From NCBI GenBank assembly GCA_965203275.1, contig OZ241865.1:1312001-1376000 (forward strand): 64,000 nucleotides of DNA. The letters run 5' to 3'. Source of the stretch: Bdellovibrionales bacterium. Its GTDB lineage: Bacteria > Bdellovibrionota > Bdellovibrionia > Bdellovibrionales > JAUICD01. The notes under the pieces are model-generated. The model was not told the origin of the DNA. It searched no databases and was given only the letters and a program-made list of their open reading frames with translations. Position numbers and translations under genes: made by a program. Positions 3,247-43,056 of the stretch are shown here, in pieces (position 1 is the stretch's first letter; each line of letters begins with the position of its first letter).

Positions 3247-4419
3247 ATGAAACAAAATCAAGTAAAAAAATTAATAAAATTAAAATTAATTAATTTAGTG
3301 AGCTTTCTTTTAACTTTAATATTGAGTATGACACTCAATGCACAATATGCACAATCACAAGGCTTTTCTCATCTAGATCAAGCTATCGCTGAACAAGAAC
3401 TACTTGAACGTTTAATGAACATAGATCAAATGAGTTTAGAAAACTTAAGAGCTAAATTACTAGCAGCAGAAGAAGATAATGAAGGAGCTATGGCAGAAGA
3501 TGGAACTTACATCACAGAAAATGGAACATACTTCATAGAGCTATCAGAGGAAGAAGCCAATATAATAACTTTATTTCAAGATGTAGCTGATGTTTTTCAA
3601 TATGAAAATGCTGTTTCCACATTACCTTTATCCATTAGTCATTTAAGTAGTGTAAACGACCCTGATTCTACTACGAATGCTGATGTTGCAATATCACAAC
3701 AACCACAACAAGCTAACGTGCAACAAGCACCTCCACCTGTAGCCCCTCCCCCTGTAGCGGTCAAAAAAAATGGGGTGCTTAAACGTACTTTTAGTGGGCT
3801 TGGATATACATTTAAGATACTAACACCAAAACCAGTAAGAACAGCCTTTATGATAACGGCATCGGTTATTATGGGAGTATCTACCTATAAATACTTAGAA
3901 GAAAATCCTGATATAGATGGAGCTATACCTGCAAGAATTGCAATCAATGTTTCAAAAGAAGTTATAGTATTTGTATTGAAAATGACTAATGCTGCTATAG
4001 AGTTTCTTGCGAGCTTTGCCCCTGACCTCGGTGAAAATCAATCTTATCAAACCCCAACAGAGGTACCAGCACCAGCACCAGGAGGAGATACAACGCTTCA
4101 GCAAAGTCATGATGGGACTACTGCTGCCACTAGAAGCGAAATGATACTCACCGGCGGAGAAACAACACCTCCAGATCATGATGAAACTGTTGCTACTTTT
4201 GACCGCAACACACAACAAGGTGTAGAACATGTAGAACAACAACCTCCTCTGCCATCAGTTACTGAAACAGAAGTTCAAGTCCATGAACCGCATTGGATCT
4301 TGACAGTGCCGGGGCATTTGAAAGCTGTTAGAAAAGAAGTTGATGTTACTACCAATGACAGTGAACCTGCTGATTCTCTACTTACACGTATTCCTCCTAC
4401 ACGTCCTCCTTCTCAATAA
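3247..4419 (+). CDS. Hypothetical secreted protein with Pro/Gln/Thr-rich low-complexity regions
   Basis: Long ORF (track start 3097); likely start ATG 3247 after GAGGTG; signal-peptide-like N-terminus; no recognised domain. Confidence 0.6.
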   Translation: MKQNQVKKLIKLKLINLVSFLLTLILSMTLNAQYAQSQGFSHLDQAIAEQELLERLMNIDQMSLENLRAKLLAAEEDNEGAMAEDGTYITENGTYFIELSEEEANIITLFQDVADVFQYENAVSTLPLSISHLSSVNDPDSTTNADVAISQQPQQANVQQAPPPVAPPPVAVKKNGVLKRTFSGLGYTFKILTPKPVRTAFMITASVIMGVSTYKYLEENPDIDGAIPARIAINVSKEVIVFVLKMTNAAIEFLASFAPDLGENQSYQTPTEVPAPAPGGDTTLQQSHDGTTAATRSEMILTGGETTPPDHDETVATFDRNTQQGVEHVEQQPPLPSVTETEVQVHEPHWILTVPGHLKAVRKEVDVTTNDSEPADSLLTRIPPTRPPSQ

Positions 4420-4501
4420 AAATGGTCAGGCTTTCTAGGCGATGACCATTTTATCGATGGCGAAAGCCCATCGTGGTCATCTAGACCACTTTTAGTGAGA
4501 C
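4417..4501 (+). repeat. Internally deleted copy of structured repeat module A
   Basis: TAAAAATGGTC...GATGACC..CGATGGC-GAAA-GCCCATCG..GGTCAT..GACCACTTTTAGTGAGAC matches the family at 22-33 kb. Confidence 0.85.
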
Positions 4502-4572
4502 AAAAGAAGTGAAACTTTATCTTTCCGCTCTTGTATATCTTTCTTATTCTGCTATTTTTTTTAAGCAAAAAA

Positions 4573-20228: not shown

Positions 20229-22331
20229 ATGTCTAAAACAATAACAGAATGTAAAGTAGGGCAGAACACTATTTGTCTTGAAACAGGGGTCATGGCCAAG
20301 CAAGCTGACGGGGCGGTGGTAGCAAAGTGTGGCAACAACATTGTGTTGGCCACAGTGGTTTCATCTAAACAGCCTTCATCATTTGATTTTTTCCCTTTGA
20401 CGGTGGAATACCAAGAGAGGCTTTATGCCTCTGGGAAGATCCCTGGAGGTTATTTTAAAAGGGAGGGTAGGCCAACAGAATTAAATACTCTTAACTGTCG
20501 ATTGATCGATCGTCCTTTAAGGCCTCTTTTCCCTGAAGGTTACAATCATGAAACACAAATCATTACCTCAGTGTTGAGTTTTGATGGGCTTTTCCCTGTT
20601 CATATTTTAGCTGGCATAGCTTCTTCAACAGCACTTCATATTAGTGATATTCCTTTCCATGGACCTGCTTGCTCTATTCAGCTAGCAAGGGTCAACAAGG
20701 AGTTCATTGTCAATCCTGATTCTAAGCAAATAGAGGAATCTGATATGAATATGGTGATTGCAGGGACAACAAAAGGGCTTTTGATGGTGGAAGGAGAATC
20801 TCAATTTTTAACAGAAAATGAAATTTTAGAGGCACTCAAATTTGCACATCAGTCTTTTCTTCCTTTAATTGAAGCACAAGAAGATTTACGATCTAAAGTA
20901 GGGCATACCAAGAGAGATTTTACACCTGTCAGTATTGATCCTTCTATTAGAGAAAAATTAGAACAAAAATTTAAAAGCCAAATTGTGACAGGACTTAAAA
21001 TTAAAACCAAGCAAGAAAGATATGCCCATCTTGCAGACCTTCAGGTAGAAGCTACTGAGAATATCACAGAAGAGATATTAGATGAGTCTGCAACAGAGCA
21101 AGAAAAAGAGGCTACTCAACAAACAGTACAGACAGTATACAATCAGTTAAAGTATGAGATTGTCCGCAATATGATTTTAAATGAAGGTGTACGTATTGAT
21201 GGAAGGAACAGCACAGATGTACGTCCTATTGAATGTGAAGTGGGTGTATTACCTAGAACACATGGTTCAGGACTTTTTACAAGAGGTGAGACCCAAGTGC
21301 TAGGTACGATCACTTTAGGCACATCTGATGACGCACAAAGTATTGATACTCTGTATGGTCCTTTAAGTAAAAGGTTTCTTTTACATTATAATTTCCCTCC
21401 TTTTTGTGTAGGAGAGACAGGACGTGTAGGAGGTCGAAGTCGTAGAGAAATTGGCCATGGCTTTTTAGCAGAAAGAGCCTTATCTGCTATTTTACCTCAA
21501 GAGGAAACCTTTCCTTACATTATTAGATTGGTTGGCGAAGTATTAGAATCAAATGGCTCAAGTTCTATGGGAACAGTGTGTTCTGGTATGTTAGCTCTTT
21601 TAGATGCAGGAGTGCCAGTGCAGAAAAATGTAGCAGGTATTGCTATGGGATTGATTAAGGAAGGGGAACAAGTAGCTATTTTATCTGATATTTTAGGTGA
21701 CGAAGATCATTTAGGGGATATGGATTTTAAGGTAGCTGGTGCAAGAGATGGTATCACAGCACTGCAAATGGATATTAAGATTGATAATATTGACTTTGAT
21801 ACAATTGAAAAGGCCTTGATGCAGGCCAAGCAAGGTCGTAATGAAATTTTAGACAAAATGGAGCAGGTTATATCTCAACCTCGGGCTGATTTATCTCCAT
21901 TTGCACCTCGCATTGAGACCATTAAAATCAATCCAGATAAGGTAAGAGATGTCATAGGTCCAAATGGTCGAACCATTAAAGATATTATTGCCACAACAGG
22001 TGTTAAAATTGACATTATGGATGATGGCACGATCAATGTGGTATCTTTAGAACCTGAAACCAGACAGCAAGCCTTAGATATGATTAAGAATATTATAGCT
22101 GATCCAGAAGTAGGAAAAGTATATAAAGGAACAGTGGTCAAGATCGCTGACTTTGGTGCTTTTGTAGAAATTTTATCAAATACAACAGGTCTATTGCATA
22201 TTTCTGAGATAGCAAGAGAGCGTGTGACGAATGTATCAGATTACCTGAAAGAAGGCGATCAGATTGATGTAAAGGTATTAGATATGGATCGCACGGGTCG
22301 TATCAAACTATCCCGCAAAGTTTTATTGTGA
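20229..22331 (+). CDS. pnp: Polyribonucleotide nucleotidyltransferase
   Basis: FFPLTVEY, RLIDRPLRP, ESNGSSSM, DHLGDMDFKVAG; KH and S1 domains. Confidence 0.98.
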   Translation: MSKTITECKVGQNTICLETGVMAKQADGAVVAKCGNNIVLATVVSSKQPSSFDFFPLTVEYQERLYASGKIPGGYFKREGRPTELNTLNCRLIDRPLRPLFPEGYNHETQIITSVLSFDGLFPVHILAGIASSTALHISDIPFHGPACSIQLARVNKEFIVNPDSKQIEESDMNMVIAGTTKGLLMVEGESQFLTENEILEALKFAHQSFLPLIEAQEDLRSKVGHTKRDFTPVSIDPSIREKLEQKFKSQIVTGLKIKTKQERYAHLADLQVEATENITEEILDESATEQEKEATQQTVQTVYNQLKYEIVRNMILNEGVRIDGRNSTDVRPIECEVGVLPRTHGSGLFTRGETQVLGTITLGTSDDAQSIDTLYGPLSKRFLLHYNFPPFCVGETGRVGGRSRREIGHGFLAERALSAILPQEETFPYIIRLVGEVLESNGSSSMGTVCSGMLALLDAGVPVQKNVAGIAMGLIKEGEQVAILSDILGDEDHLGDMDFKVAGARDGITALQMDIKIDNIDFDTIEKALMQAKQGRNEILDKMEQVISQPRADLSPFAPRIETIKINPDKVRDVIGPNGRTIKDIIATTGVKIDIMDDGTINVVSLEPETRQQALDMIKNIIADPEVGKVYKGTVVKIADFGAFVEILSNTTGLLHISEIARERVTNVSDYLKEGDQIDVKVLDMDRTGRIKLSRKVLL

Positions 22332-22342
22332 CTTTTGTTTCC

Positions 22343-23233
22343 CTTTCACTCAAAATGAGCCACATCTCTGTTTCACTAAAAGTGGTCTGACCTCTGGTCA
22401 CTTTCTGGTTGCCAGCCGAAGGCTATTCGCCTTCTTAAATGCTGGCAACCTAGAAAGCTTGACCACTTTTAGTAAGGAGGATCCATTTCTCATTTAACAC
22501 CATGTTAAGGAAAAAGTTCTTTCTTACACCTTTTGACCACGATGGCTTTCGCCATCGGTAAAATGGTCATCACCTAGAAAGCCTGACCACTTTTAGTAAG
22601 GAGGATCTCTTCGTTTCTTAACACCATGTTAAGGATTTGTTTCACTCAAAATGCATCATGCCTCTGGCATGTTTTCTGGCAGTTAGCCCAACGGCTTATC
22701 GCCGTTGATCAAAGGCTAACTGCCTAGAAAATCCATTTATTTTGAGTAGGGAAGGATCTTCTCGTCTCTTAACATGATGTTAAGGAAACAGTTCCTTCTT
22801 ACACCTGCTTGCCTGATGCCGGATCCCGGGATCCCGGATCCCGGAAAAAATCAATTTTAACTTTAAGTGTTTTTACACAACTTGTATAAATAAGCTCCTA
22901 ATTGATCAGCTTGTTTTGCTAATTCCATACAGCCACTAAATTCCAAGTCTAGTATTGCCTGAACTGTTTTTCACTAAAAGTAAACTAGCCGTCTTTTGCA
23001 CTAAAAGTAAACTGACCTCTGGTCACTTTTGGGTTGCCAGCCGAAGGCTATTCGCCTTCTTAAATGCTGGCAACCTCAAAAGTCCGTTTACTTTTAGTAG
23101 AGGAGGATCTCTTCGTTTTTTGACTACATGTTAAGGAAAATGTCCTTCTAATGGCAGTTAGTCCGACGGCTTATCGCCGCCGATCAAAGGCTAAGCTGTT
23201 TCACAGTGGTCTAGCCTCTGGCTACTTTTTGGT
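22343..23233. repeat. Mosaic array of structured repeats (module A copies at ~22366-22515, 22534-22635, 22639-22790, 22999-23140; fragments; GGATCCC tandem at 22817-22844)
   Basis: Recurring TTTCACT(A/C)AAA, CCTCTGG, GGAGGATC and TTAACA-N3-TGTTAAGG motifs with nested inverted repeats. Confidence 0.9.
22863..22964 (-). pseudogene. 3' fragment of a probable four-helix-bundle protein gene
   Basis: Minus strand reads VQAILDLEFSGCMELAKQADQLGAYLYKLCKNT*; truncated at its 5' end by a repeat; family assignment is from memory of the C-terminal pattern. Confidence 0.55.
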
Positions 23234-23342
23234 TGGTTTTTTGACTAAGTTATAATATAATGTTTCATTAGTTAGACAGATGATTAGAAATTAAGTTATT
23301 ATTAAGTATTATGTTTAAAGATATAAAGGGAGGTTCAAAGTT

Positions 23343-24416
23343 ATGACAGAGAGAATTTTATTACAATTAACAATAGATGCTATTTTCAAGGCTTTTTTTG
23401 AAAATAGAAAAGATCTTTTAATTTCACTGGTAGAGAATTTTGTACCTTTGCCTAAGGGTTCTGTGATAGAGGATGTTTCATTATTAAACACAGAGCTTCT
23501 TCCCGATAAGGTTCCAGACGAATACAAATCCTTTACTTTAGATTTGCGTGTGAAATTAAGAAGACAGGTCAGAGGCGTTCTTCAAGATACAGATATTGTC
23601 CATGTAGAAGTTCAAACAACAAGTCAAAAATTTTTTACAGATCGGATATTAGTTTATGCTTCTAGGGCTTATTCTGGTCAGATAAAGAAAGGCGAAGATT
23701 TTAATCAATTACTTCCTGTGTATTCACTTGTTTTTACAACAGCTAATTTAAAAGAATTTGCAGGGATAAAGGATTACTATCATATCTGCAATATCCGTCG
23801 GACAAAACCACCAGAAGTGATTATGTCTCGTGGATTGTGTTTTGTCATTGTGGAATTAGGCAAGTTTCAGTCAAGTTTGCATGAATTATTTGACAAAAAG
23901 GCAGATTGGTGTTATCTTTTAAAGAACTCTGGTAATATGGATTTAAAGGAGTATACCAATTTTCAAAACAAGGGAGGTATTATGGCAGAAGCAGCAAAGC
24001 ACTTATGGATATTATCAAAAGATGAGACATTACAGGAACTTGCAATGGTGAAAGAGAGAGACAGAAAAGATCAAGCAGCCAGAGAAGAGGGTGCTTATGA
24101 AGAAGGAATGAAGAAAGGGATGAAGAAAGGTCGTAAGGAAGGAATGGAGGAAGGAATGGAGAAAGGAATGGAGAAAGGAATGGAGGAAGGAATGGAGAAA
24201 GGAATGGAGAAAGGAATGGAGAAAGGAATGGAGAAAGGAATGGAGAAAGGAATGGAGAAAGGAATGGAGAAAGGGATGGAGAAAGGGATGAAGAAAGGTC
24301 GTAAGGAAGGAATGGAGAAAGTGGCACAAAATATGTTGAAAGAAAATCTCAATATTTCATTGATTTCTACAATGACAGGTTTATCCAAAGATGACATTCT
24401 CAAGCTGAAAAAATAA
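23343..24416 (+). CDS. Rpn family recombination-promoting nuclease / PD-(D/E)XK putative transposase
   Basis: D.IFKAFF, LDLRV..HVEVQ, R..VYASR.Y..QI.KGE, FVIVELGKF; G(M)EK repeat tail; VAQNMLK...ISTMTGLS end. Confidence 0.92.
   Translation: MTERILLQLTIDAIFKAFFENRKDLLISLVENFVPLPKGSVIEDVSLLNTELLPDKVPDEYKSFTLDLRVKLRRQVRGVLQDTDIVHVEVQTTSQKFFTDRILVYASRAYSGQIKKGEDFNQLLPVYSLVFTTANLKEFAGIKDYYHICNIRRTKPPEVIMSRGLCFVIVELGKFQSSLHELFDKKADWCYLLKNSGNMDLKEYTNFQNKGGIMAEAAKHLWILSKDETLQELAMVKERDRKDQAAREEGAYEEGMKKGMKKGRKEGMEEGMEKGMEKGMEEGMEKGMEKGMEKGMEKGMEKGMEKGMEKGMEKGMKKGRKEGMEKVAQNMLKENLNISLISTMTGLSKDDILKLKK
23973..23984 (+). promoter_or_regulatory. Internal in-frame SD (GGAGG) and ATG for a short Rpn C-terminal product (23982-24416)
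   Basis: GGAGGtattATG, in frame with the gene; the same signal is present in the second Rpn gene and at the start of the free-standing copy. Confidence 0.75.
24100..24320 (+). repeat. 12-bp coding tandem repeat (GGAATGGAGAAA; GMEK/GMEE/GMKK)
   Basis: Directly visible in DNA and protein. Confidence 0.95.
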
Positions 24417-24418
24417 TT

Positions 24419-24835
24419 TGCTCAAAAGTAGCCAGAGGATTATCCCTAACCCCACCCCCCACCCTTTGATTGCTTTTTTCACTCAAAATGAACTGGCCTC
24501 TGGCCACTTTTGGGTAGCCAGCCCGACTGCTCACGCCGTCGTAAAAAGCTGGCTACCTCAAAAGCTTGTTCATTTTGAGTAGAGAAGGATCTCCTCATTC
24601 CTCTACACCATGTTAGGGAAAAAGTGCTTTTATTACCTTAAGAGCAAGCGGTTTACAAATGAGGGACTTTTTCCTTAACATGTAGTTAAAAAACGAGGAG
24701 ATCCTCCTTACTAAAAGTAAACGGATTTTTGAGGCATTGCTCTTTTTGGACAGCGATAGCTGTCAGAGCAATGCCCAAAAACAGCCAGAGGCTGGTTTAC
24801 TTTTAGTGAAACAGAGGCTGGTTTATTTTTAGTGA
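24419..24835. repeat. Inverted pair of module A repeats (24477-24622 and 24668-24817) with linker and fragments
   Basis: Two family copies in opposite orientation joined by a ~45-bp linker. Confidence 0.88.
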
Positions 24836-24852
24836 GAATAAAAGGAGGCGTT

Positions 24853-25167
24853 ATGGCAGAGGCAGCAAAGCACTTATGGATATTATCAAAAGATGAGACA
24901 TTACAGGAACTTGCAATGGTGAAAGAGAGAGACAGAAAAGATCAAGCAGCCAGAGAAGAGGGTGCTTATGAAGAAGGAATGAAGAAAGGAATGAAGAAAG
25001 GAATGGAAAAAGGGATGGAGAAAGGGATGGAGAAAGGTCGTAAGGAAGGAATGGAGGAAGGGATGGAGAAAGTAGCACAAAATATGTTGAAAGAAAATCT
25101 CAATATTTCATTGATCTCTACAATGACAGGTTTATCCAAAGATGACATTCTCAAGCTGAAAAAATAA
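24853..25167 (+). CDS. Free-standing Rpn C-terminal domain (RpnS-like putative antitoxin)
   Basis: AAAGGAGG-ATG; near-identical to 23982-24416 except for fewer GMEK units. Confidence 0.8.
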   Translation: MAEAAKHLWILSKDETLQELAMVKERDRKDQAAREEGAYEEGMKKGMKKGMEKGMEKGMEKGRKEGMEEGMEKVAQNMLKENLNISLISTMTGLSKDDILKLKK

Positions 25168-25169
25168 AC

Positions 25170-25940
25170 TGCTCAAAAGTGACCAGAGGTCAGTTTACTT
25201 TTAGTGAAACAACTATCCCTAACCCCACCCGCCACCCTTCGATTCTGCTTTCTCATTTTGTTTTTACTTGAGGATGAGGGCAGAGGGAGCCTTCCGAAGT
25301 CCTCAATTGAGCTTGCTTTTAAGGAGCAAGCTCAATTTGCGGAAGATCTCCAGTCTCCCTCTGCCCCCATCCTCCCCTAAATGATTTTTTATTTGAGAGT
25401 TACGCAGAATCTAAAAAAAATAAAAAAACAAAAAATACTTCCTCCGGGATACGGAATCCCGGGATCCGGGATCTGGGATCCGGGATCTGGCAAGCCGGCA
25501 TCAGATCCCGGGATGCCAGATTGCTTGATCCCGGATCCCGGGAGTAAATGTTTTGTTTCCTTAACATGGTGTTAAGAGAAAAAAGGATCCTCCTCTACTC
25601 AAAATAAATGAATTTTCTAGGCAGTTAGCTTTTGATCGACGGCGGTAGCCGTCGGGCTAACTATTAGAAGAATGTTTTCCTTAACATGGTGTTAAGAAAC
25701 GAAGAGATCCTCCCTACTCAAAGTGAACAGGCTTTTGAGACAATGACCATTTTGTCAAAGGCGAAAGCCTTTGCGGTCATTGTCCAAAAGTGGCCAGAGG
25801 CCAGTTCACTTTGAGTGAAACAGAGGTCAGTTCATTTTGAGTGAAAAAAATTGAGGACTTCGGAAGGCTCACACTGCCCTATCCTCAAATAAAAATAAAA
25901 TGGAAAAGCAGAATTGAAGGGCGATGGGTGAGGTTAGGGA
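25170..25940. repeat. Mosaic repeat array: module B (25216-25445), GGATCCC tandem (25444-25543), module A copies (25556-25672, 25675-25826), inverted module B half (25849-25940)
   Basis: Direct comparison with the other arrays. Confidence 0.88.
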
Positions 25941-25978
25941 TTGGGGGTTTGGATAGAGGGGCAGGGGTAGATCCAGAG

Positions 25979-28147
25979 TTAGGGGGTGGGGCCGGGAAGT
26001 AAATCTTGTCTATCTTGAGGATGCCAACCTTTACTATCATACGGAAGTTGTCTATTATGATTTTGACTCCCTCTTATACAACAATGATGGTCACTTTCTG
26101 TTTTTACCTCATACACATCTGTAGTATTGCTTGACAGCTTAAATTTGAAAGGGTCATAAAAAGTAAAGTCATGCCAGTCCGTTCTACCATAGTGGTCTAA
26201 ATCCTCACAATCTTTTGTATAACAAGCATCGAGACGGCTTGGACACATATTATTGTGAAGATCGTCATTGTCTTCAAGATACTGTTGTTGACCTGTCCAA
26301 CCTGCTAATTTAGCAGCAGTGGCACAAGTAGGGTAACATTCACCAGCACTAGATACATATTTATATCCAGGAGGACAATCTCTTTTGTAAGCTCGTCTGC
26401 AACATTTATCTTCTACAGCACCTTTAATTTCCAAAACATTCCAGGTCTGTCTATCAACATCGCAATAATCCCCAGTTTGTGTTTCAACTAAGAGAGCTTT
26501 TGCAGTTGTTTTCTCAAACACCATACAACGTGGAAGGCATTGACTCCCACCTACAGGTGTAGCATAGCCTGCAAGTATTTGCTCCTGAGTACAAGTAGCA
26601 TTCACATCTTCCTCTCCCTCCTCAGATGATGATGCAGTGGAGGTGGGGCTAGATGAAGAAACGGGTACACAACCATTAGCAGCACTTGTTCCACATCCAG
26701 GGTAGTAAGGTATTGACGGTTGACCAGGAGGTCTTGGACGGGTATATATCCATCCATATTTATTTACAGAAGCTTGAGGTGTTGCACCTGATGAAGAACT
26801 TTGCATAAAGAAGGCATCCTCAACTCCCCTAACCCCTGTGCCTACTTCAGAAGATTCATCGTTACTTCCAGATCTTCCAGTGGTCGTAGATGTTGTTGAA
26901 TCTGTGCTAGATTCTGCCGGGTCAGGACTGGCCTGCCATGTTGTTGTACCTTTACCATGAATGATTTGAACTGTTCTTACGATAGCTTGATTATTAATTA
27001 AGCATTTATATGCAATGCGATCGGTCTCAACCTCTTCGACAGTTGCACAGTTACCAGTGCATGCATACCCCCAATTAGGGTCTCCACCTGAGCCTTTTTG
27101 TAAAATTTGTACAACACGATCCATAAATCTCCAGTTTTCATTTGTGTGTTGAGCTTGATCTGTTATAGTGTTTTGATGATGTTTAAAAAATGTATTAAAC
27201 TCTTCTTCATACTGCTGTCTTGTCATATCTACAACCCTCTCCTGCTCATTAGGGATATTACATCTGCCTGGGCAAGCTTCACTGTTAGGATCCTCAGAAC
27301 ATGACCTAACAATTTCACAACAACAGTTCTCTTTACAATTCTCATCCTGTGAACATTCACTACCATCAAAGTTATCTGAAGCCTCAAAATTGAAAACACA
27401 ACCATTCCCCTTTGTGCTAGGTAATTTGACTAACACCAGCTCAGATCTTTCTCTTATATTGCCTGCATGACCAGCAGGAAGTCTCTTTTTAACAAGACCT
27501 GACACCATTAAGCCAATCACATCTCCAGAGCGAAGCACTAAATTTTCTAGTTTTGAAGCCTCTGTACGTCGACCCAATGATAATCTTTTATTTGGTACCC
27601 ATCGATAATCATATAAATTTTTGATATTCTCAGCATCTAATGTGTGACAAGCCTCACCCTCTCTCATATAATCATAAGTAGCAGCAACAGACTCATCGTC
27701 ATTTAGCTTTACTAAAATCCATGGATTGCCTTCGACTTTTACATCCATATTAGGAAGTGATAAAGACGGCCATTGACCTAATTGAGTATGATCAATGCAA
27801 ATTTGTCCATTTTTTTTAATCTCTATTTTTGTTATTTTAGATGTTTCAGGCCACTTTCCTACAATTGGTTCGCCTCCCGGCGGTCCCTCATCCCCTGGAG
27901 GGACTTCAACACCAGGATCGTCTATATCTTTATCAGGGTCAGGAGGATCAGGGTCAGGGAGAACAGTATCACCGGGGCGATCTGCGGCACGATTAGAAGG
28001 ATATTCAGACGATTCTTCCCCTCCTAAAAAAGAACAGTTCATAAACATCAAAAGGCTTGCAATACTTGTTAGGCTAAGAGCCATTAATACTTTTTCTTTT
28101 TGATGATTACGTTTGACTGGAATTTTCATTTTAAATAACAACCTCAT
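25979..28147 (-). CDS. Cys-rich secreted lipoprotein, function unknown
   Basis: Hydrophobic N-region ending FMNC; Pro/Asp and Ser/Thr linkers; many Cys pairs. Confidence 0.7.
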   Translation of the reverse strand: MRLLFKMKIPVKRNHQKEKVLMALSLTSIASLLMFMNCSFLGGEESSEYPSNRAADRPGDTVLPDPDPPDPDKDIDDPGVEVPPGDEGPPGGEPIVGKWPETSKITKIEIKKNGQICIDHTQLGQWPSLSLPNMDVKVEGNPWILVKLNDDESVAATYDYMREGEACHTLDAENIKNLYDYRWVPNKRLSLGRRTEASKLENLVLRSGDVIGLMVSGLVKKRLPAGHAGNIRERSELVLVKLPSTKGNGCVFNFEASDNFDGSECSQDENCKENCCCEIVRSCSEDPNSEACPGRCNIPNEQERVVDMTRQQYEEEFNTFFKHHQNTITDQAQHTNENWRFMDRVVQILQKGSGGDPNWGYACTGNCATVEEVETDRIAYKCLINNQAIVRTVQIIHGKGTTTWQASPDPAESSTDSTTSTTTGRSGSNDESSEVGTGVRGVEDAFFMQSSSSGATPQASVNKYGWIYTRPRPPGQPSIPYYPGCGTSAANGCVPVSSSSPTSTASSSEEGEEDVNATCTQEQILAGYATPVGGSQCLPRCMVFEKTTAKALLVETQTGDYCDVDRQTWNVLEIKGAVEDKCCRRAYKRDCPPGYKYVSSAGECYPTCATAAKLAGWTGQQQYLEDNDDLHNNMCPSRLDACYTKDCEDLDHYGRTDWHDFTFYDPFKFKLSSNTTDVYEVKTESDHHCCIRGSQNHNRQLPYDSKGWHPQDRQDLLPGPTP

Positions 28148-28285
28148 AATCTTTTATCGGCAAAATATTGTCTTAATTTGAGTCTTTTTTTCTTAAAACC
28201 TCTTTTTTATTGTTTGATTAAAAATTTGGCTTATCTTTATATTAAAAATTGACTTATCTTTTAAAAATAATTCACAATAACCCTT

Positions 28286-28843
28286 ATGGAACAAAACCTT
28301 TCTGACCACAAATCTCAAATTATAGCTATTATAAAAAAGCGATCACTTCAAAAAGGACCTATTCGCTTAGCTTCTGGTAAGGTCAGCAATTTCTATATCG
28401 ATCTCAAACAAACTATCCTTGACCCTCAAGGACTTGACCTCTTATCAGACTTGATTTTAGAGTTCTTAAACAAAAAAAATCTTGTTGGTGTGGCAGGCTC
28501 TGGTATAGGAGCATTGCCTCTCACAACGGCTGTCACCCTAAAATCGCTAAATACTCCTAAACCCTTTCTGCATCTTTATATACGATCTCAAGTAAAGGAG
28601 TGGGGGACTAAACAAGTGATAGAAGGCACTCACAGCTTCCAACCTAAAGATAAAGTTTGGATTTTAGAAGATGTTGTCACAACAGGCGGTTCTAGCCTCT
28701 ATGCTACTCAAAAGTGTCAAGAGTTTGGTCTCCAGGTAGAAGGCATTCTCACCTGTGTTGACCGACAAGAGGGAGGGAGAGAAAAGATTGAAAATAAAGG
28801 CATTCACTTTCACAGCTTAATCCATATGTTTGATTTACACTAA
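28286..28843 (+). CDS. pyrE: Orotate phosphoribosyltransferase
   Basis: LASGKVSNFYID, EDVVTTGGS, CVDRQEGG. Confidence 0.93.
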   Translation: MEQNLSDHKSQIIAIIKKRSLQKGPIRLASGKVSNFYIDLKQTILDPQGLDLLSDLILEFLNKKNLVGVAGSGIGALPLTTAVTLKSLNTPKPFLHLYIRSQVKEWGTKQVIEGTHSFQPKDKVWILEDVVTTGGSSLYATQKCQEFGLQVEGILTCVDRQEGGREKIENKGIHFHSLIHMFDLH

Positions 28844-29811
28844 AAGTAAACTGACCTCTGGTCACTTTTGGACATTGCTCTGACAGCTATCGCTGTCCAA
28901 AAAGAGCAATGTCGTTGGTTCACTAAAAGTGGTCTGACCTCTGGTCACTTTCTGATTGCCAGCCGAAGGCTATTCGCCTTCTTAAATGCTGGCAACCTAG
29001 AAAGCATAACCACTTTTAGTAGGAGGATCCTTTCCTCTTTTAACATCATGTTAAGGAAACAGAACTTTATTCGCAAACCGCTTGCTTCTGAGGTAATAAA
29101 AGAAATTTTCCTTAACATGGTGTAAAAGAATAAAAGGGTCCTCCTCTACTCAAAATGCATAGATTTTTGAGGCAATGACCATTTTGCCAACGGCGTAAGC
29201 CGTTGCGGTCATTGCCCAAAAACATGCCAGAGGCATGATGCATTTTGAGTGAAATGTTAAGGAAAAAGTCCTTTCTGATGCCGGGTTGCCAGATCCCGGA
29301 TCCCGGGTGAACACAATGTTAAGGGTTTGTTTCACTCAAAATGCATCATGCCTCTGGTTCACTAAAAGTAAACTAGCCTCTGGCTACTTTTGGGTAGCCA
29401 GCCCGACGGCTCTCGCCGTCGATCAAAGGCTGACTACCTCAAAAGCTTGTTCAATTTTAGGAAGAAGGATCACCTTGCTTTTTAACATGATGTTAAGGAA
29501 AAAAGATTTCCTTTTTTTTGTTTTTTTTATTCTTTTTTAGATTCTGCGTAATTTTCAAAAAAACATAAAATTTATGAGTGGGAGGCGGGGGCAGGCTGAA
29601 GATCTTCCGCAAATTGAGCTTGCTTTTAAGGAGCAAGCTCAATTGAGGACTTCGGAAGCCTGACCCCGCATTCCACTCATAAAAAACATACAAATGGAAA
29701 GGCAGAATCAAAAGGGTGGCGGGTGGGGTTAGGGAGTTTGTTTCACTAAAAATAAACCAGCCGTCATTTTCACTCAAAATGAATTGACCTCTGGACGCTT
29801 TTAGTGAAACA
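28838..29811. repeat. Mosaic repeat array: module A (28838-28912, 28918-29060, 29106-29254, 29357-29503), GGATCCC tandem, module B (29507-29735), fragments
   Basis: Direct comparison with the other arrays. Confidence 0.88.
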
Positions 29812-29813
29812 AC

Positions 29814-29926
29814 ATAGATTGTCTAAAATTCTGCCACAAAAACAAAAACCTAGTGGCACAAAATCTCTTTCGACTCATAACCTACTGATTTTACTCAACT
29901 TTATTTTGCAGGCTATCAAACTCAGG
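29814..29926 (+). mobile_element. Isolated downstream end of the IS1634-family element
   Basis: Reverse-complement match, with a few substitutions, to 57236-57348; ends in TCAAACTCAGG. Confidence 0.9.
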
Positions 29927-29948
29927 AATCAAAAAAAGATTAAACACG

Positions 29949-32900
29949 TTAATTGTTGCTTAAGTGAATATCTGATATTCTTCTCTGAATTCCATTGCGG
30001 TCAACAGATATTTCTCCATTATCTTTAATGTTAATAACTATTTTACCATTTTCAACCTGCCAATTAAATATAATATTTCCATCCTGCAGTTGGCTTTTGT
30101 TTACTTTTACCCAAGCTTTATTATTCTCATTCTCAATTCTTGATCTAATATCACTAAAACCACTTGCTCTATCTTGCATTTGCAAATATTCTTCAACTAA
30201 GAAATCTATAACCGCAGGGTCTACAACATATCTTATTGTTTTTTGACTGCTTTCCATCATGTCCAACTCAGACTGTACTACTTCCATCAAGGCATCTCTA
30301 CTTAAAAATCCCATCCAAAAAGTATGATCAATTCTTCGATAAAAGGCAGCTGGACCTCCTGAATTACGGTTGCTCATTATAGAATCTGTACCAGAAAATT
30401 CTTTTCTTAGCTGAGCAATTGCTTCTGACTTAAGCTCCGCAGGGAGTTCTAATAAATCTTCTGCTGGATATCGTCTTTTGAAATTTTCTACAGCTCTACT
30501 TAGATCTTCTGGAGTTATTTCTTCTTCTGTACGCTTACCATTGATCACTGCTATTATCTCTCTCTGTGTAGGTGCCAGTTCGTTTGGATTTAAATCATTT
30601 AGCTGATTGTTTCTTATTTTCATAATAAAATCCAAATCTTCTTTTGATCTTTCATTGATTCTCAGTTCTTCCATTTGTTCTGCATTAAACCCATACTTCA
30701 AAAGACTAAAATCTGGGTTTAAATCTAAGAAGATCATTGTATTTTGAAAAGACACAAGCCGACCTTTTGAATCTTCTATCACTCCATCTTCAAAAATATT
30801 CATCAAAATATTTAAAATACTAGATGGCATCTGATTGACCTCATTGATATAGATGACAGCACGAGGATTATTAATCACTTTTGCAGTAAGAGATTGATTA
30901 TCTGCTAAGGAATCATTGTCTCTATTTAGAAGATCCTTATTTCCTAATAAGCTTTCTATAGTGGCAGTAGAACCTCTCACTTTGATAATAGCGTCTTCTT
31001 TTTGCTTTCCTGGATGAAAGAATTTCCCTATTGTTTCAACTAATATGGTTTTACCAATGCCTGGTGGACCAAGAAGAAGTATAACTCTAGTAGGTCTTTC
31101 TGGTTTAGAAGTCATTTTGGATGCAGCACCTAGTAGCATATTACCAATGTCTTCAACGAGAGAACCATAGCCTTTGAATCTAGCCCTTACAGATTGTACA
31201 AAGTTCTCTAAACTGTGATATAATTCTGGCCCTGCGTATGTTTCCACAGGCATTCCCAATGCTTCCCCTACAATAATATCTATATCTTGAATAGTTATGG
31301 AAGTTTGTAAATTTTCAATACGTTCTTGGATTATATCTAAAGAAAGACCCTCTTTTATGTCTCTTTGTAGTTGATGAAATGAATCTTTTTGAGTTTCATT
31401 TAGATTATTTTCTGCATAATCAAAAATGTTATCGAGAAGTGTTTTTCTGCTCTTGAAATATTCAGATCCAAAGTGATAGTATTTATTCGCAAGAAATAAA
31501 GCTCGATCCATAATAAGTGTCTTTTGTGTTGATGTGAAAAGAGGTTTATTGAGATTGTTTTGATCAAATAAATAGTTTGAGACAGATTCTATCTGCCTTT
31601 GATCAGGTGTAGGCATGTCTACCGTGGTAAATCCTTGACCTATCTGACTGCCCATAAAATTTCTGGATTGTCCTTGTCTTAATCTACCAACAATCCTTAA
31701 TCCACCACTATGTGGGTCTTCAGCAGCTTTTTTCATGATACCTAGTAAACTCGATCCAATATTATCATTTGGAGAGCCTTCTGTTGGTCCTTTTTCAAAT
31801 AAGTCTCTGACTAAATCATCTACTACCAAAATACACTGGCCATTACAATTTGCAATTGCATCTTTCATTTTCAGCATATTTTTTTCTAGGTCACCAGAAT
31901 ATCTAGTCCCTGCTACTGCATGTTCAGAATTTAATCGAAAAAATCCTATATTTACTAAACGCGGATCTATCTTACCATGATAGGGGCTATTAGGATCCTT
32001 TGATTCCATAATGGCATGAATAGTATCATGTATTAATGTTTCGCGACCTGTTCCTGGAAGTCCTGTCACGGCTACAGAAGAGTTACCTATATTAGTAAGG
32101 GCTTGTGCCACTTTTATAATCAAATTGGGATCAGAAACACCTTTAGATAACTTACCTTCTTCAGCTTTACGTGTTAAGTTTTCTGTAGTATAAGGGATAG
32201 AGGCATTTTGGACAGATGCACTGGATGAAGCAGGAGGGTTATAATTTGAATTTGCATACTGCTGAGTATCTGTAAAACTTGTTCTTTCTTCTCCTCTGAC
32301 ATAGTGAATACTTTGATAAAGCTTATCTGTTACTTCGGCAGTTTTTCTATCTATTTCTCTTTGAGGTTTTAGTCCTCCCCAAGTTCTTGTGAACCTTTGC
32401 CACCATGTAGATTGAGTAGTTAAGTTAGTGAACAAAAAATCACGAATAGCATGATCCGCGTTTAAAATGCCTAAAAGAAAGTGTTCAGGGGCAGGCGTGT
32501 TAAAAAATGCTTTGTTATTCCTTTGTCGGAAAAGTTCTTCTTTTGTTGCGGCATTTTCAGCTAATGCAATCAGGTCTTCATCTTCTTTTATTTTAAGGTG
32601 ATCACGATTAAGAATAGATTGAGTATTTTCAGATATTTCCTCTAAATTTAATCTCAAATCTCCATTTTCATTTCTTTCAAAAGGAGGTTCTGGAGTATTA
32701 TTTCCATGTTGAAAATATCCCAGTCTGTTCAAAAGAAAGTCTTGAAAAGACTTTACATCAAAGCCTGCATTTTTCAAGATAGCAGGCAAGGTACCATTAG
32801 TAAAATTCCAGCCTTGGTAAGTAGAATAGACAGCTTGTGCATCATTATTATTTTTATTAGGTTCTTTAGATCGAACCTCCAATGTGAGTGCAAGCAAGAC

Positions 32901-33110
32901 ATGTTCTGGTAGGACAATAGAACTTCCTAAGGCATGAGCTATGTGGGTAGCTGCCCCTATAGCTTCTTGAACCTCTCGAGTCATTTTTTTGACTCTACCA
33001 TCAGAAGGACACATTGCATACACAGAAACACTTTGCACTTGAACAAATATCACAAAATAACATATTAAATAAGTTTTTAACTTTAACATAATGTATGACT
33101 TATATACCAC
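29949..33110 (-). CDS. Divergent ClpA/ClpB-like double AAA+ protein with signal-peptide-like N-terminus
   Basis: Clp-N repeats (PEHVLLAL, PEHFLLGIL), AGTRYSGDLE, GPPGIGKT, EDSKGRLVSFQNTMI, AFYRRID; true start may be ATG 33089. Confidence 0.8.
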   Translation of the reverse strand: MVYKSYIMLKLKTYLICYFVIFVQVQSVSVYAMCPSDGRVKKMTREVQEAIGAATHIAHALGSSIVLPEHVLLALTLEVRSKEPNKNNNDAQAVYSTYQGWNFTNGTLPAILKNAGFDVKSFQDFLLNRLGYFQHGNNTPEPPFERNENGDLRLNLEEISENTQSILNRDHLKIKEDEDLIALAENAATKEELFRQRNNKAFFNTPAPEHFLLGILNADHAIRDFLFTNLTTQSTWWQRFTRTWGGLKPQREIDRKTAEVTDKLYQSIHYVRGEERTSFTDTQQYANSNYNPPASSSASVQNASIPYTTENLTRKAEEGKLSKGVSDPNLIIKVAQALTNIGNSSVAVTGLPGTGRETLIHDTIHAIMESKDPNSPYHGKIDPRLVNIGFFRLNSEHAVAGTRYSGDLEKNMLKMKDAIANCNGQCILVVDDLVRDLFEKGPTEGSPNDNIGSSLLGIMKKAAEDPHSGGLRIVGRLRQGQSRNFMGSQIGQGFTTVDMPTPDQRQIESVSNYLFDQNNLNKPLFTSTQKTLIMDRALFLANKYYHFGSEYFKSRKTLLDNIFDYAENNLNETQKDSFHQLQRDIKEGLSLDIIQERIENLQTSITIQDIDIIVGEALGMPVETYAGPELYHSLENFVQSVRARFKGYGSLVEDIGNMLLGAASKMTSKPERPTRVILLLGPPGIGKTILVETIGKFFHPGKQKEDAIIKVRGSTATIESLLGNKDLLNRDNDSLADNQSLTAKVINNPRAVIYINEVNQMPSSILNILMNIFEDGVIEDSKGRLVSFQNTMIFLDLNPDFSLLKYGFNAEQMEELRINERSKEDLDFIMKIRNNQLNDLNPNELAPTQREIIAVINGKRTEEEITPEDLSRAVENFKRRYPAEDLLELPAELKSEAIAQLRKEFSGTDSIMSNRNSGGPAAFYRRIDHTFWMGFLSRDALMEVVQSELDMMESSQKTIRYVVDPAVIDFLVEEYLQMQDRASGFSDIRSRIENENNKAWVKVNKSQLQDGNIIFNWQVENGKIVINIKDNGEISVDRNGIQRRISDIHLSNN

Positions 33111-33171
33111 AATTAAATAAATTGCAAGGTTAAATTAAAAATTAATTGTTAAATGCAAAAACCATGTAAAC

Positions 33172-33397
33172 TTTTCACTAAAAGTAAACTGACCTCTGGT
33201 CACTTTCTGGTTGCCAGCCGAAGGCTACCGCCTTCTCAAAAGCTGGCAACCTAGAAAGCCTGTTCACTTTGAGTAGGGAGGATCCCTTCACTTTTTTACT
33301 TCATGTTAAGGAAACAAAATGCTTTCAAAATTATATTAAAAGAGCAATGTCTCAAAAGTGGCCAGAGGCCAGACCACTTTTAGTGAAACAGAGGTCA
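33172..33397. repeat. Module A copy (33172-33315) and opposite-strand fragment (33341-33397)
   Basis: Same motifs and stems as the other copies. Confidence 0.88.
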
Positions 33398-34336
33398 CTT
33401 TACTTTTAGTGGAAACGACTGGCGAATTTTTTTGATTTCTGCTTCTGATAGGCCAGTGATTTCACAGATATCTTGTAATTTTGCATTTCTCTCAATTAGC
33501 TTAAGTGCAATCTCTTTTTGTTTCTTCTCAATACCTTCTTCACGACCCTTCTCAAGACCTTCTTCACGACCCTCGTCACGAACAAATTCTTCTCTGTCTA
33601 CTTGATCCCTCCTAGCTCTCTCTTTCACCATATCAAGCTCTTGTAATGTCTCATCTTTTGATAATATCCATAAATGCTCAGCTGCTTCTGCCATGATTCC
33701 TCCTTTATCTTTGAAATATAAATATTCCTTTTGGTCCATCTGACCCGACCTCTTTAAAAAATAACACCAATTCTCTTTTATGTCAAATAATTCTCCTAAT
33801 TGGGACTGAAATTTATCTAATTCTACTATCACAAAACTCATACCCCGCGACATCACTACTTCTGGATGCTCTGTCCGACGAATATTGCAAACATGGTAAT
33901 AGTCCTTTATTCCTTCAAATTCTTTTAAATTTACAGTTGTGAAAACCAATGAATACACTGGAAGTAACTTATCAATATTCTCACCTTTCCTAATTTGACC
34001 TGAATAGAGCCGAGATAGATACATCAGTAACCTATCCGTAAAATGCTTTTGAGCTGTCGTTTGGACTTCTACATTCGCTGTCTCTGTATTTTGAAGAATG
34101 CCATTAATCCTTCTCCTTAACAGCACTCGCAAATCTAAAACAAAAAATTTATACTCCTCCGGGAATTTATCCGATGGAAGTTCTGTATTTAATATATGAA
34201 TGTCTTCTATTACAGAACCCTCTGGCAATGGAAGAAAATTCTCCATTATCGAAATCAAAAGCTTTTTCTTCCTTGTAAAGAAGGCCTTGAAATTACGATC
34301 TTTTGTTAAACTTAAATTCTTGCTTGGTTTTTTCAT
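33395..34336 (-). CDS. Rpn family recombination-promoting nuclease / PD-(D/E)XK putative transposase (second paralog)
   Basis: D.NFKAFF, LDLRV..NVEVQ, FVIVELDKF, GREEG repeats, EITGLS; internal GGAGG-ATG at 33694. Confidence 0.92.
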   Translation of the reverse strand: MKKPSKNLSLTKDRNFKAFFTRKKKLLISIMENFLPLPEGSVIEDIHILNTELPSDKFPEEYKFFVLDLRVLLRRRINGILQNTETANVEVQTTAQKHFTDRLLMYLSRLYSGQIRKGENIDKLLPVYSLVFTTVNLKEFEGIKDYYHVCNIRRTEHPEVVMSRGMSFVIVELDKFQSQLGELFDIKENWCYFLKRSGQMDQKEYLYFKDKGGIMAEAAEHLWILSKDETLQELDMVKERARRDQVDREEFVRDEGREEGLEKGREEGIEKKQKEIALKLIERNAKLQDICEITGLSEAEIKKIRQSFPLKVK

Positions 34337-34486
34337 CTTGTATACCTCATTTTTATTATCTTAGTTTAATAGTAAAAAATCACTTAAGTCAAATATATTC
34401 TGTTTGTCATAACTTTTAACTGCCTTATAACTGCTCTAAGAATGATATGTATTATTCTGTGATCTTCTCTACAAAGATCATCCTTC

Positions 34487-42955: not shown

Positions 42956-42967
42956 AAGCCTGTTGCT

Positions 42968-43056
42968 TTTTGTCAAAGGCGAAAGCCTTTGCGGTCATTG
43001 TCCAAAAGTGACCAGAGGTCAGTTTACTTTTAGTGAAATGGACCACTTTTAGTGAA
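42968..43056 (+). repeat. Partial module A copy with duplicated 3' end
   Basis: CAAAGGC-GAAA-GCCTTTG..GGTCATTGTCCAAAAGTGACCAGAGGTCAGTTTACTTTTAGTGAAA. Confidence 0.85.

Follow-up and report, generated by a model that had tools for sequence, protein, structure and literature searches.

The best-understood hairpin repeats of bacteria (REP/REPIN sequences, derivatives of IS200/IS605 and integron attC sites) all rely on an identified recombinase by which single-stranded DNA is recognised in its folded form. The present report concerns module A, a dispersed repeat found in a window of 64,000 nucleotides (bases 1,312,001-1,376,000) of the single-contig genome of an uncultured Bdellovibrio-like bacterium, which comprises 2,567,810 bases with 35% G+C and has a marker-gene completeness of 90.4%. 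Module A is probably a new family of non-coding, non-autonomous, fold-dependent mobile DNA repeat that resembles REP/REPIN sequences and miniature inverted-repeat transposable elements (MITEs).

Elements of the palindrome-associated IS200/IS605 type have no terminal inverted repeats, produce no target duplication and carry dissimilar structured ends. Integron attC sites conserve structure over sequence, contain extrahelical bases and measure 60-150 bases. The ERIC, Correia, BOX and RUP sequences are intergenic hairpin repeats of 100-170 bases, modular or mosaic and mostly without a known enzyme; where the ends are known, these are inverted terminal repeats with duplications of TA or the like, and to our knowledge no such repeat has a covarying three-way junction. 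Regarding REP/REPIN sequences with their RAYT, two sources (PMC3116915, PMC3337134) describe features that are also those of module A, i.e. extragenic location, hundreds of copies, a hairpin, lack of coding capacity, arrays, persistence within a lineage and complementarity between inverted halves. Stem-loops of IS605 are named in a further source (PMC2775950).

Module A shares with REP/REPIN sequences the high extragenic copy number (about 800 copies; in a genome that is 75% coding, called genes contain only 7 of the 795 full copies), whereas the RAYT gene flanked by repeats that such a system needs is missing, the genome containing no Y1 gene. In contrast to the REP palindrome of 20-40 bases or its doublet, it measures about 148 bases and has a three-way junction, a bulged A and an unpaired 5' tail of 45 bases. 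The lack of terminal inverted repeats, of any target duplication found and of similarity between the structured ends, together with a presumably folded single-strand substrate, recalls the IS200/IS605 type; two of the three carriers of module A, however, are without TnpA, and the IS200-type element of the third has different, small hairpins. Whereas IS200/IS605 elements show a lagging-strand bias, no orientation bias along the chromosome was detected for module A (cumulative range 27 versus 32 in permutations, p 0.73), but the replichores could be assigned only with uncertainty and the GC skew was weak. In its 5' flank module A has a purine-rich but not fixed sequence; IS200/IS605 elements insert next to a fixed target of 4-5 bases. 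Structural conservation, extrahelical bases and length are shared with attC sites, whereas module A is dispersed in 424 clusters, mostly without cassettes, and no expansion of integron-type integrases was found. Its density (6.4% of the genome) lies far above that of ERIC, Correia, BOX and RUP. On the favoured reading module A works like REP/REPIN or IS200/IS605-derived elements but falls outside the definitions of both.

A genome-wide nhmmer search with a profile seeded from ten window copies gave 1447 matches in the 424 clusters; about 800 are near-full, and all matches together cover 164,227 bases. The window holds 18 matches, namely ten near-full copies and six fragments within 22366-33397 and two fragments outside it; all ten near-complete copies of the original prediction were placed by nhmmer exactly where it had put them. 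Neighbouring copies are mostly arranged head-to-tail (731 pairs in the same orientation versus 292 in opposite orientation, part of the latter being double matches to both strands of one palindrome). The unit of about 148 bases runs from TTTTTCCTTAACAT to AGTGAAAC; new intergenic sites receive it as a whole, and it expands as head-to-tail arrays besides. The copies of the window and the parts of the model copy are given below in window coordinates; bit scores are from cmsearch with covariance model R1, which was built from the MAFFT alignment of the ten copies and then used to gather copies.

25667..25828, plus strand: model copy, full length (177.5 bits; nhmmer 25667-25825)
25679..25687, plus strand: 5' terminal motif CCTTAACAT of the model copy, conserved in sequence and not a kept helix (619 distinct copies)
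25716..25728, plus strand: 5' arm of P1, pairing with 25804-25816 (P1 perfect in 487 of 619 distinct copies)
25732..25748, plus strand: 5' arm of the long stem P2 with the bulged A at 25738, pairing with 25775-25790 (fold, covariation, bulged A in 590 of 619)
25756..25773, plus strand: apical hairpin P3 (6-7 predicted pairs in 692 of 698 copies; 123 distinct apical segments)
25791..25803, plus strand: side hairpin P4 with invariant AGA loop (fold, covariation, motif conservation)
25804..25821, plus strand: 3' arm of P1 and 3' terminal motif AGTGAAAC (fold, edge analysis, motif conservation)
22363..22522, minus strand: full copy (179 bits; nhmmer 22364-22522)
22632..22797, minus strand: full copy (151.1 bits; nhmmer 22637-22797)
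22988..23148, minus strand: full copy (172.7 bits; nhmmer 22992-23148)
24469..24630, minus strand: full copy (172.8 bits; nhmmer 24474-24630), forming with the next an inverted pair with a 30-base spacer between
24661..24819, plus strand: full copy (162.2 bits; nhmmer 24661-24814)
28910..29068, minus strand: full copy (166.8 bits; nhmmer 28911-29068)
29098..29262, plus strand: full copy (157 bits; nhmmer 29099-29256)
29349..29510, minus strand: full copy (163 bits; nhmmer 29349-29510)
33165..33323, minus strand: full copy with mismatched P1 arms, chimeric alleles (161.3 bits, alignment; nhmmer 33169-33318)
22535..22635, minus strand: fragment, model positions 14-113 (nhmmer)
25169..25212, plus strand: 3' terminal fragment, model positions 115-158 (nhmmer)
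25549..25668, plus strand: fragment, model positions 5-122, abutting the model copy (nhmmer)
28834..28909, minus strand: fragment, model positions 79-156 (nhmmer)
29765..29805, minus strand: 3' terminal fragment, model positions 118-158 (nhmmer)
33351..33394, plus strand: 3' terminal fragment, model positions 118-161, abutting the stop of an Rpn-like gene (nhmmer)
4407..4504, plus strand: fragment outside 22366-33397, model positions 44-159 (nhmmer)
42965..43041, plus strand: fragment outside 22366-33397, model positions 83-158 (nhmmer)

The model copy folds at -66.2 kcal/mol on the plus strand (z -8.4; 0 of 200 shuffles as good) and at -70.3 kcal/mol on the minus strand (z -9.7). The fold is a three-way junction with four helices and one branch point, consisting of P1, the bulged long stem, the apical hairpin and the side hairpin, and each helix originally named for this copy was recovered in the predicted fold. 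Among the ten window copies (MAFFT and RNAalifold), 36 pairs were predicted, 19 of which stay paired despite two-sided changes. Two larger sets were aligned by fitting to the model's own structure, and the shuffle and slide statistics given for them ignore the kinship of the copies. In the first set (125 copies of the own genome, from the window and ten 20-kb pieces), 97.9% of 4129 cells were paired versus 80.5% in shuffles (0 of 500 reaching the observed value), the proportion was 36-48% when partners were slid by 1-3 columns, and two-sided changes occurred in 23 of 35 pairs. In the second set, drawn from the sister species and a third genome (98 copies), the proportion of paired cells was 96.7%, with two-sided changes in 26 of 35 pairs; this set yielded 62 further pair types versus 52.1 in shuffles (0 of 500) and many stem variants unseen in the genome of the window. 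The claim that stems change on both arms together across copies is thereby borne out, complementarity being kept while sequences change in three genomes, and the Infernal-type covariance model that had been proposed as a check, once built, gave strong covariation in the own genome and in two relatives.

Close copies (281 pairs with 1-6 differences) differ at 2.10% of paired sites (621 of 29,530, a site counting as paired if it is paired in either copy) and at 3.88% of unpaired sites (335 of 8632). The same pairs contain 50 double compensating changes beside 532 single ones, the rough expectation under independence being about 6. The arms of the same helix have a normalised mutual information of 0.72, 0.83 and 0.78, most pairs from different helices one of 0.46-0.74, and the arms of P1 are tightly associated even though they lie about 85 bases apart. 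The same fold geometry is found in the sister species, in which pnp and other housekeeping genes are 67-73% identical in DNA. Because of the changes between close copies, the association within helices and the common geometry in a diverged species, the pairing reflects more than shared descent. Of the 619 distinct copies, 79 have a P1 with at least two positions unpaired, as chimeric arms would produce, which together with the only partial association between helices points to mosaic copies made by recombination; the window copy at 33165-33323 is an example of such a chimera in the alignment of the ten copies.

Complementarity of this kind might also arise as a by-product of DNA mechanics, since template switching within a hairpin during replication or repair makes imperfect palindromes perfect (quasipalindrome correction), and no selection would then be needed. 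The rare and symmetric mismatches, the many two-sided transversions (G-C to C-G) with no wobble intermediates seen, and the presence of the 50 double changes even between very close copies are in line with such a process. Correction should, however, erase bulges and asymmetric loops, whereas the bulged A is kept in 590 of 619 distinct copies of the own genome and in 77 of 80 copies of other genomes; moreover, the 5' TTAACA/TGTTAA palindrome is left uncorrected, and the spread to 424 clusters is left unexplained. Hairpin correction alone is considered a very improbable source of the pairing.

Apart from the bulged A, the nearly invariant unpaired motifs are CCTTAACAT, the CCAGAGG loop and AGTGAAA. 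At least 602 of the 619 distinct copies have AGA as the loop of their side hairpin, and each position of CCTTAACAT is at least 99% invariant except T17 (553 of 619). Regarding the TTAACA-N3-TGTTAA palindrome, which had been listed as part of the fold, the 5' arm is nearly invariant and the 3' arm drifts without compensation; the supposed partner TGTTAAGG of CCTTAACAT has three of seven pairs that are Watson-Crick in only 53-71% of copies. TTAACA/TGTTAA is for this reason a sequence motif and not a maintained helix. The GATCCTCC region pairs weakly and its helix is poorly kept. Of the proposal that structure rather than sequence is maintained, the first part holds for the helices, which are kept by complementarity in three genomes, but several unpaired motifs are near-invariant in sequence.

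Regarding mobility, a comparison of 1063 pairs with at least 95% identity and a distance of over 1.5 kb between the two copies showed that the likeness stops at the 5' boundary of the unit (model positions 8-16) in 638 pairs and at its 3' boundary (model positions 151-161) in 786. An identical twin elsewhere exists for 41 copies, and a twin one change away for 66. An array stands immediately behind pnp in this genome; in the three relatives examined, none is present at that place. As near-identical copies share the unit alone and sites are not conserved between species, module A moves. Its two ends differ in sequence, and nested copies occur, in which module A lies in the apical loop of an older copy, sometimes with part of the older stem lost. 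A composite insertion (another repeat module plus module A) in one Rpn gene has an 11-base direct repeat at its edges. Of the five genomes of the family, three gave module A, one genus having it in only one of its two species, and no copy turned up in 26 further genomes of the order.

Outside these genomes, a 16-base pattern matched at least 67 loci in genome contigs and was too loose, 63 being single chance-like matches in unrelated taxa; among the matches listed, four loci fell in one record of a Bdellovibrionales bacterium metagenome-assembled genome. A 27-base pattern, which catches eight of the ten window copies with 0 matches expected, gave 0 loci in metagenome contigs and 0 in viral contigs, and blastn of the model copy against plasmids and phages gave nothing. 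A literature search on the motifs and on such repeats in this lineage returned nothing relevant, the motif matches being unrelated primers. Contigs of public runs stop at the arrays, e.g. at 22373, 28867 and 29894. The unique genes of window 20229-34400 are present, identical or with very few differences, in contigs from three runs belonging to three studies, and more diverged pieces of the same stretch occur in a run labelled as sponge metagenome; the contigs of all these runs break at the arrays.

Under the favoured reading, that of a mobile DNA repeat, copying would depend on the folding of the unit, as an extruded or single-stranded hairpin, into the three-way junction, and a trans-acting protein may read the junction through the invariant unpaired motifs, i.e. 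CCTTAACAT, the bulged A, the CCAGAGG loop and AGTGAAAC. Only copies with pairing arms would leave descendants, by which complementarity would be kept and stems would drift into discrete variants; recombination between copies would shuffle the stem variants into mosaics.

Several results weigh against this reading. No target-site duplication was found (at most 13 of 698 copies have a flanking repeat at any offset), and, as no empty site was recovered (no bridging contig among all contigs of four public runs), insertion was never seen directly. The own genome gave 0 matches to Y1/RAYT (Y1_Tnp, PF01797; in a control this profile matched in 6 of 14 genomes), and no IS110 or reverse transcriptase gene was found in it; the only TnpB-like match (PF07282 zinc-ribbon) is Cas12a (PADLOC E 3e-154) with cas genes adjoining. 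Neither IS256 (8-base duplication) nor the IS4-like element, both resident in the genome, has ends related to those of module A. A search for a gene-bearing (autonomous) version, in which 5' and 3' parts 400-6000 bases apart enclose a gene, gave 71 raw pairs; the 12 clean split pairs share no recurrent gene, and no gene-bearing version of the unit emerged. When all copies are aligned by the less exact hmmalign, G-T cells outnumber A-C cells (362 versus 243), by which a mild strand preference is possible at most; the excess comes mostly from one helix, where indel misalignment is suspected, and without that helix the counts are 125 and 108.

The search for an enzyme was extended as follows. The TnpA of the sister species gave nothing as query against the own genome at E up to 1, and no Y1 gene was found in the third carrier. 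As to partners of a guide-RNA scaffold, neither a TnpB besides the Cas12a match nor an IS110 was found, IscB not having been searched separately. Copies lie within 250 bases on both sides of 69 genes, 20 of which, present once or twice, were screened: 12 are ordinary, including CTP synthase, ThiI, TrmD, GAPDH and DivIVA, and the eight without a Pfam match gave one sub-threshold NCBIfam match and otherwise nothing, one of them resembling a respiratory-complex membrane subunit. The original prediction had suggested that a Y1/RAYT, reverse transcriptase, TnpB or tyrosine recombinase partner be looked for across the genome; of these, only two tyrosine-recombinase matches were found. Since marker-gene completeness is 90.4%, a single missing enzyme gene is possible. 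A DDE-type MITE was rejected as an explanation, there being neither ends that match the resident IS256 or IS4-like element nor a target duplication.

The Cas12a match is a type V-A effector gene (genome 239340-242780; locus L160, 340-3780) followed by frames of 245 and 91 residues, and a full module A copy stands directly after it (genome 242887-243045). The stretch 29862-29931 of the window is a relic of the right end of the IS4-like element, comprising its last 70 bases with the terminal CAAACTCAGGAAT.

These data bear directly on the proposals of an attC-like folded site and of an HUH/RAYT-type REP substrate, i.e. on the explanation that module A is an integron site or a substrate of a Y1 enzyme (RAYT, IS200/IS605). 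Module A resembles attC sites in length, being an imperfect palindrome in which one extrahelical base is fixed, has no target duplication, as in Y1 elements, and is adjoined by small mobile-looking genes (Rpn genes and 11 of 11 genes of the 23S_rRNA_IVP family). Against this, there are only two tyrosine-recombinase matches and no cassette array, the 424 clusters are dispersed, and neither the own genome nor the third carrier has a Y1 gene. The single Y1 gene of the sister species is of IS200 type, lies 3.5 kb from the nearest module A copy and has unrelated hairpins, and a relative without module A has three Y1 matches. Both proposals are close to refuted. In the sister species the IS200-type gene (locus L184, 3976-4416) is bordered at both ends by small GC-rich hairpins that do not resemble module A. 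The mobilising protein is not among the recognised hairpin-dependent transposases. That module A is the substrate of a hitherto unrecognised structure-specific system of DNA mobilisation, working without Y1/HUH, IS110, TnpB or reverse transcriptase, is suggested only tentatively and is considered rather unlikely; its mover could be an unannotated protein common to the three carriers, a host repair or recombination enzyme, or one subfamily of Rpn PD-(D/E)XK proteins.

Rpn-like reading frames form the second largest paralogue family of the genome (58 frames). A module A copy lies at most 150 bases downstream of 71% of them, versus 13% of other genes, a copy lies within 200 bases of 53 of the 58, and several Rpn genes are interrupted by copies, all of which could suggest that these Rpn/YhgA-like PD-(D/E)XK 'transposase' genes move module A. 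One relative, however, has 16 Transposase_31 matches and no copy, and in another the 2-kb flanks of 13 Rpn genes are unique and free of copies; no copy was found in the 2 kb around three Rpn loci of the sister species, and the flanks of Rpn genes in the own genome are not constant. Two sources on Rpn proteins describe them as recombination-promoting nucleases and as toxin-antitoxin phage defence (PMC5350276; 10.1101/2023.05.02.539157). Rpn genes were rejected as movers on the phyletic pattern across relatives, and their role as such is judged highly improbable; their neighbourhood with module A is read as co-accumulation in dispensable DNA together with insertions into Rpn genes.

The window contains three Rpn/YhgA-like PD-(D/E)XK genes (Pfam PDDEXK_2 / Transposase_31) at 23343-24416 (plus strand), 33395-34336 (minus strand) and 24832-25167 (plus strand), with runs of the four-residue repeat EKGM. 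The last of these is the 3' half of an Rpn copy into which a composite repeat has inserted, an 11-base direct repeat marking the edges of the insertion. The Rpn subfamilies are 15-40% identical to each other, each with sharp unit edges. In a family of 101 residues (Pfam 23S_rRNA_IVP, e.g. genome 1094149-1094454), all 11 members have module A within 200 bases.

The behaviour of module A is that of DNA and not that of an RNA gene. Among the 4008 cells of the model-fitted alignment, G-T/T-G (38) and A-C/C-A (36) are about equally rare, i.e. there is no wobble signature, and any wobble preference is at most mild and far from that of structured RNAs. No orientation bias relative to genes was found in tandem gene contexts (213 co-oriented versus 204 opposed), and no promoter-like sites recur in the copies (9 found versus 7.0 expected in the region). 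No Rfam family reached its threshold on any copy, one tRNA elsewhere in the window being the only sequence there to do so; the best sub-threshold match on a copy was a microRNA hairpin model (43 bits versus 100 needed). The original statement that the family is not a recognised one thus stands, with no Rfam match at the gathering threshold and no description in the literature searched. The structured non-coding RNA that had also been proposed would be a small RNA or a cis-acting site for mRNA processing or stabilisation, its fold kept for RNA function. The multi-helix fold, the invariant loops and the bulge would suit it, as would the excess of terminator-like matches (small hairpin followed by a T run) on the reverse strand (17 versus 3.2 expected). 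In the third carrier, three tandem copies in gene orientation lie between rpsQ and rplN (locus L137, 2963-3662) and, being gene-oriented within a ribosomal protein operon, are probably transcribed; the 17 public runs that contain the window stretch include no RNA run. With its head-to-tail arrays, its nesting and its roughly 800 copies, module A does not resemble known RNA genes, and this, together with the lack of wobble, orientation bias, internal promoter and Rfam match, makes an RNA function improbable.

About as improbable is a DNA structure that serves the host, i.e. a site for a nucleoid, replication, repair or recombination protein kept by host selection. It would account for the invariant short motifs and the fixed geometry, for the maintenance of module A in two species with housekeeping genes only about 70% identical in DNA, and perhaps for its distribution, which is densest in divergent intergenic regions (217 copies in 314 regions versus 417 in 1110 tandem ones). 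Module A was, however, not found in two of the five family genomes, including a congener of a carrier; its sites are not conserved, and the arrays, fragments and nesting look like uncontrolled growth.

Other repeat modules accompany module A. A second repeat of about 145 bases with a weak fold (-11 kcal/mol) is present at genome 2043189-2043350 and 23 other places; all of its 24 near-full copies occupy one position in module A, after the long stem and before the side hairpin (…CCCA | … | AAAAG…), and their module A hosts carry different stem variants. It forms a tandem array at genome 467079-468465, and one locus consists of ten tandem units. Between module A copies of the window are found a long hairpin of about 110 bases (25256-25389 and 29590-29680), with sub-threshold matches to microRNA models, and runs of GGGATCCCGG-like heptamers (22800-22845, 25440-25545 and 29280-29305), which build composite arrays with module A and the long hairpin.

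Bacterial genomes rarely tolerate so much repeat DNA, and here 6.4% of one genome derives from a single unit of 148 bases. The repeats break short-read assemblies of this symbiont. They also interrupt Rpn-like genes, a family that two sources describe as phage-defence nucleases (PMC5350276; 10.1101/2023.05.02.539157). If, despite the negative phyletic test, one Rpn subfamily did move module A, the 'putative transposases' of this name would be real transposases. Module A, whose more elaborate fold is maintained between species, continues to multiply in a genome in which searches for Y1, IS110, TnpB-type and reverse transcriptase genes gave none; the enzyme responsible belongs either to a known class that has stayed hidden or to a new one, and the natural stem variants constitute a ready-made mutational scan of what the reader protein needs.

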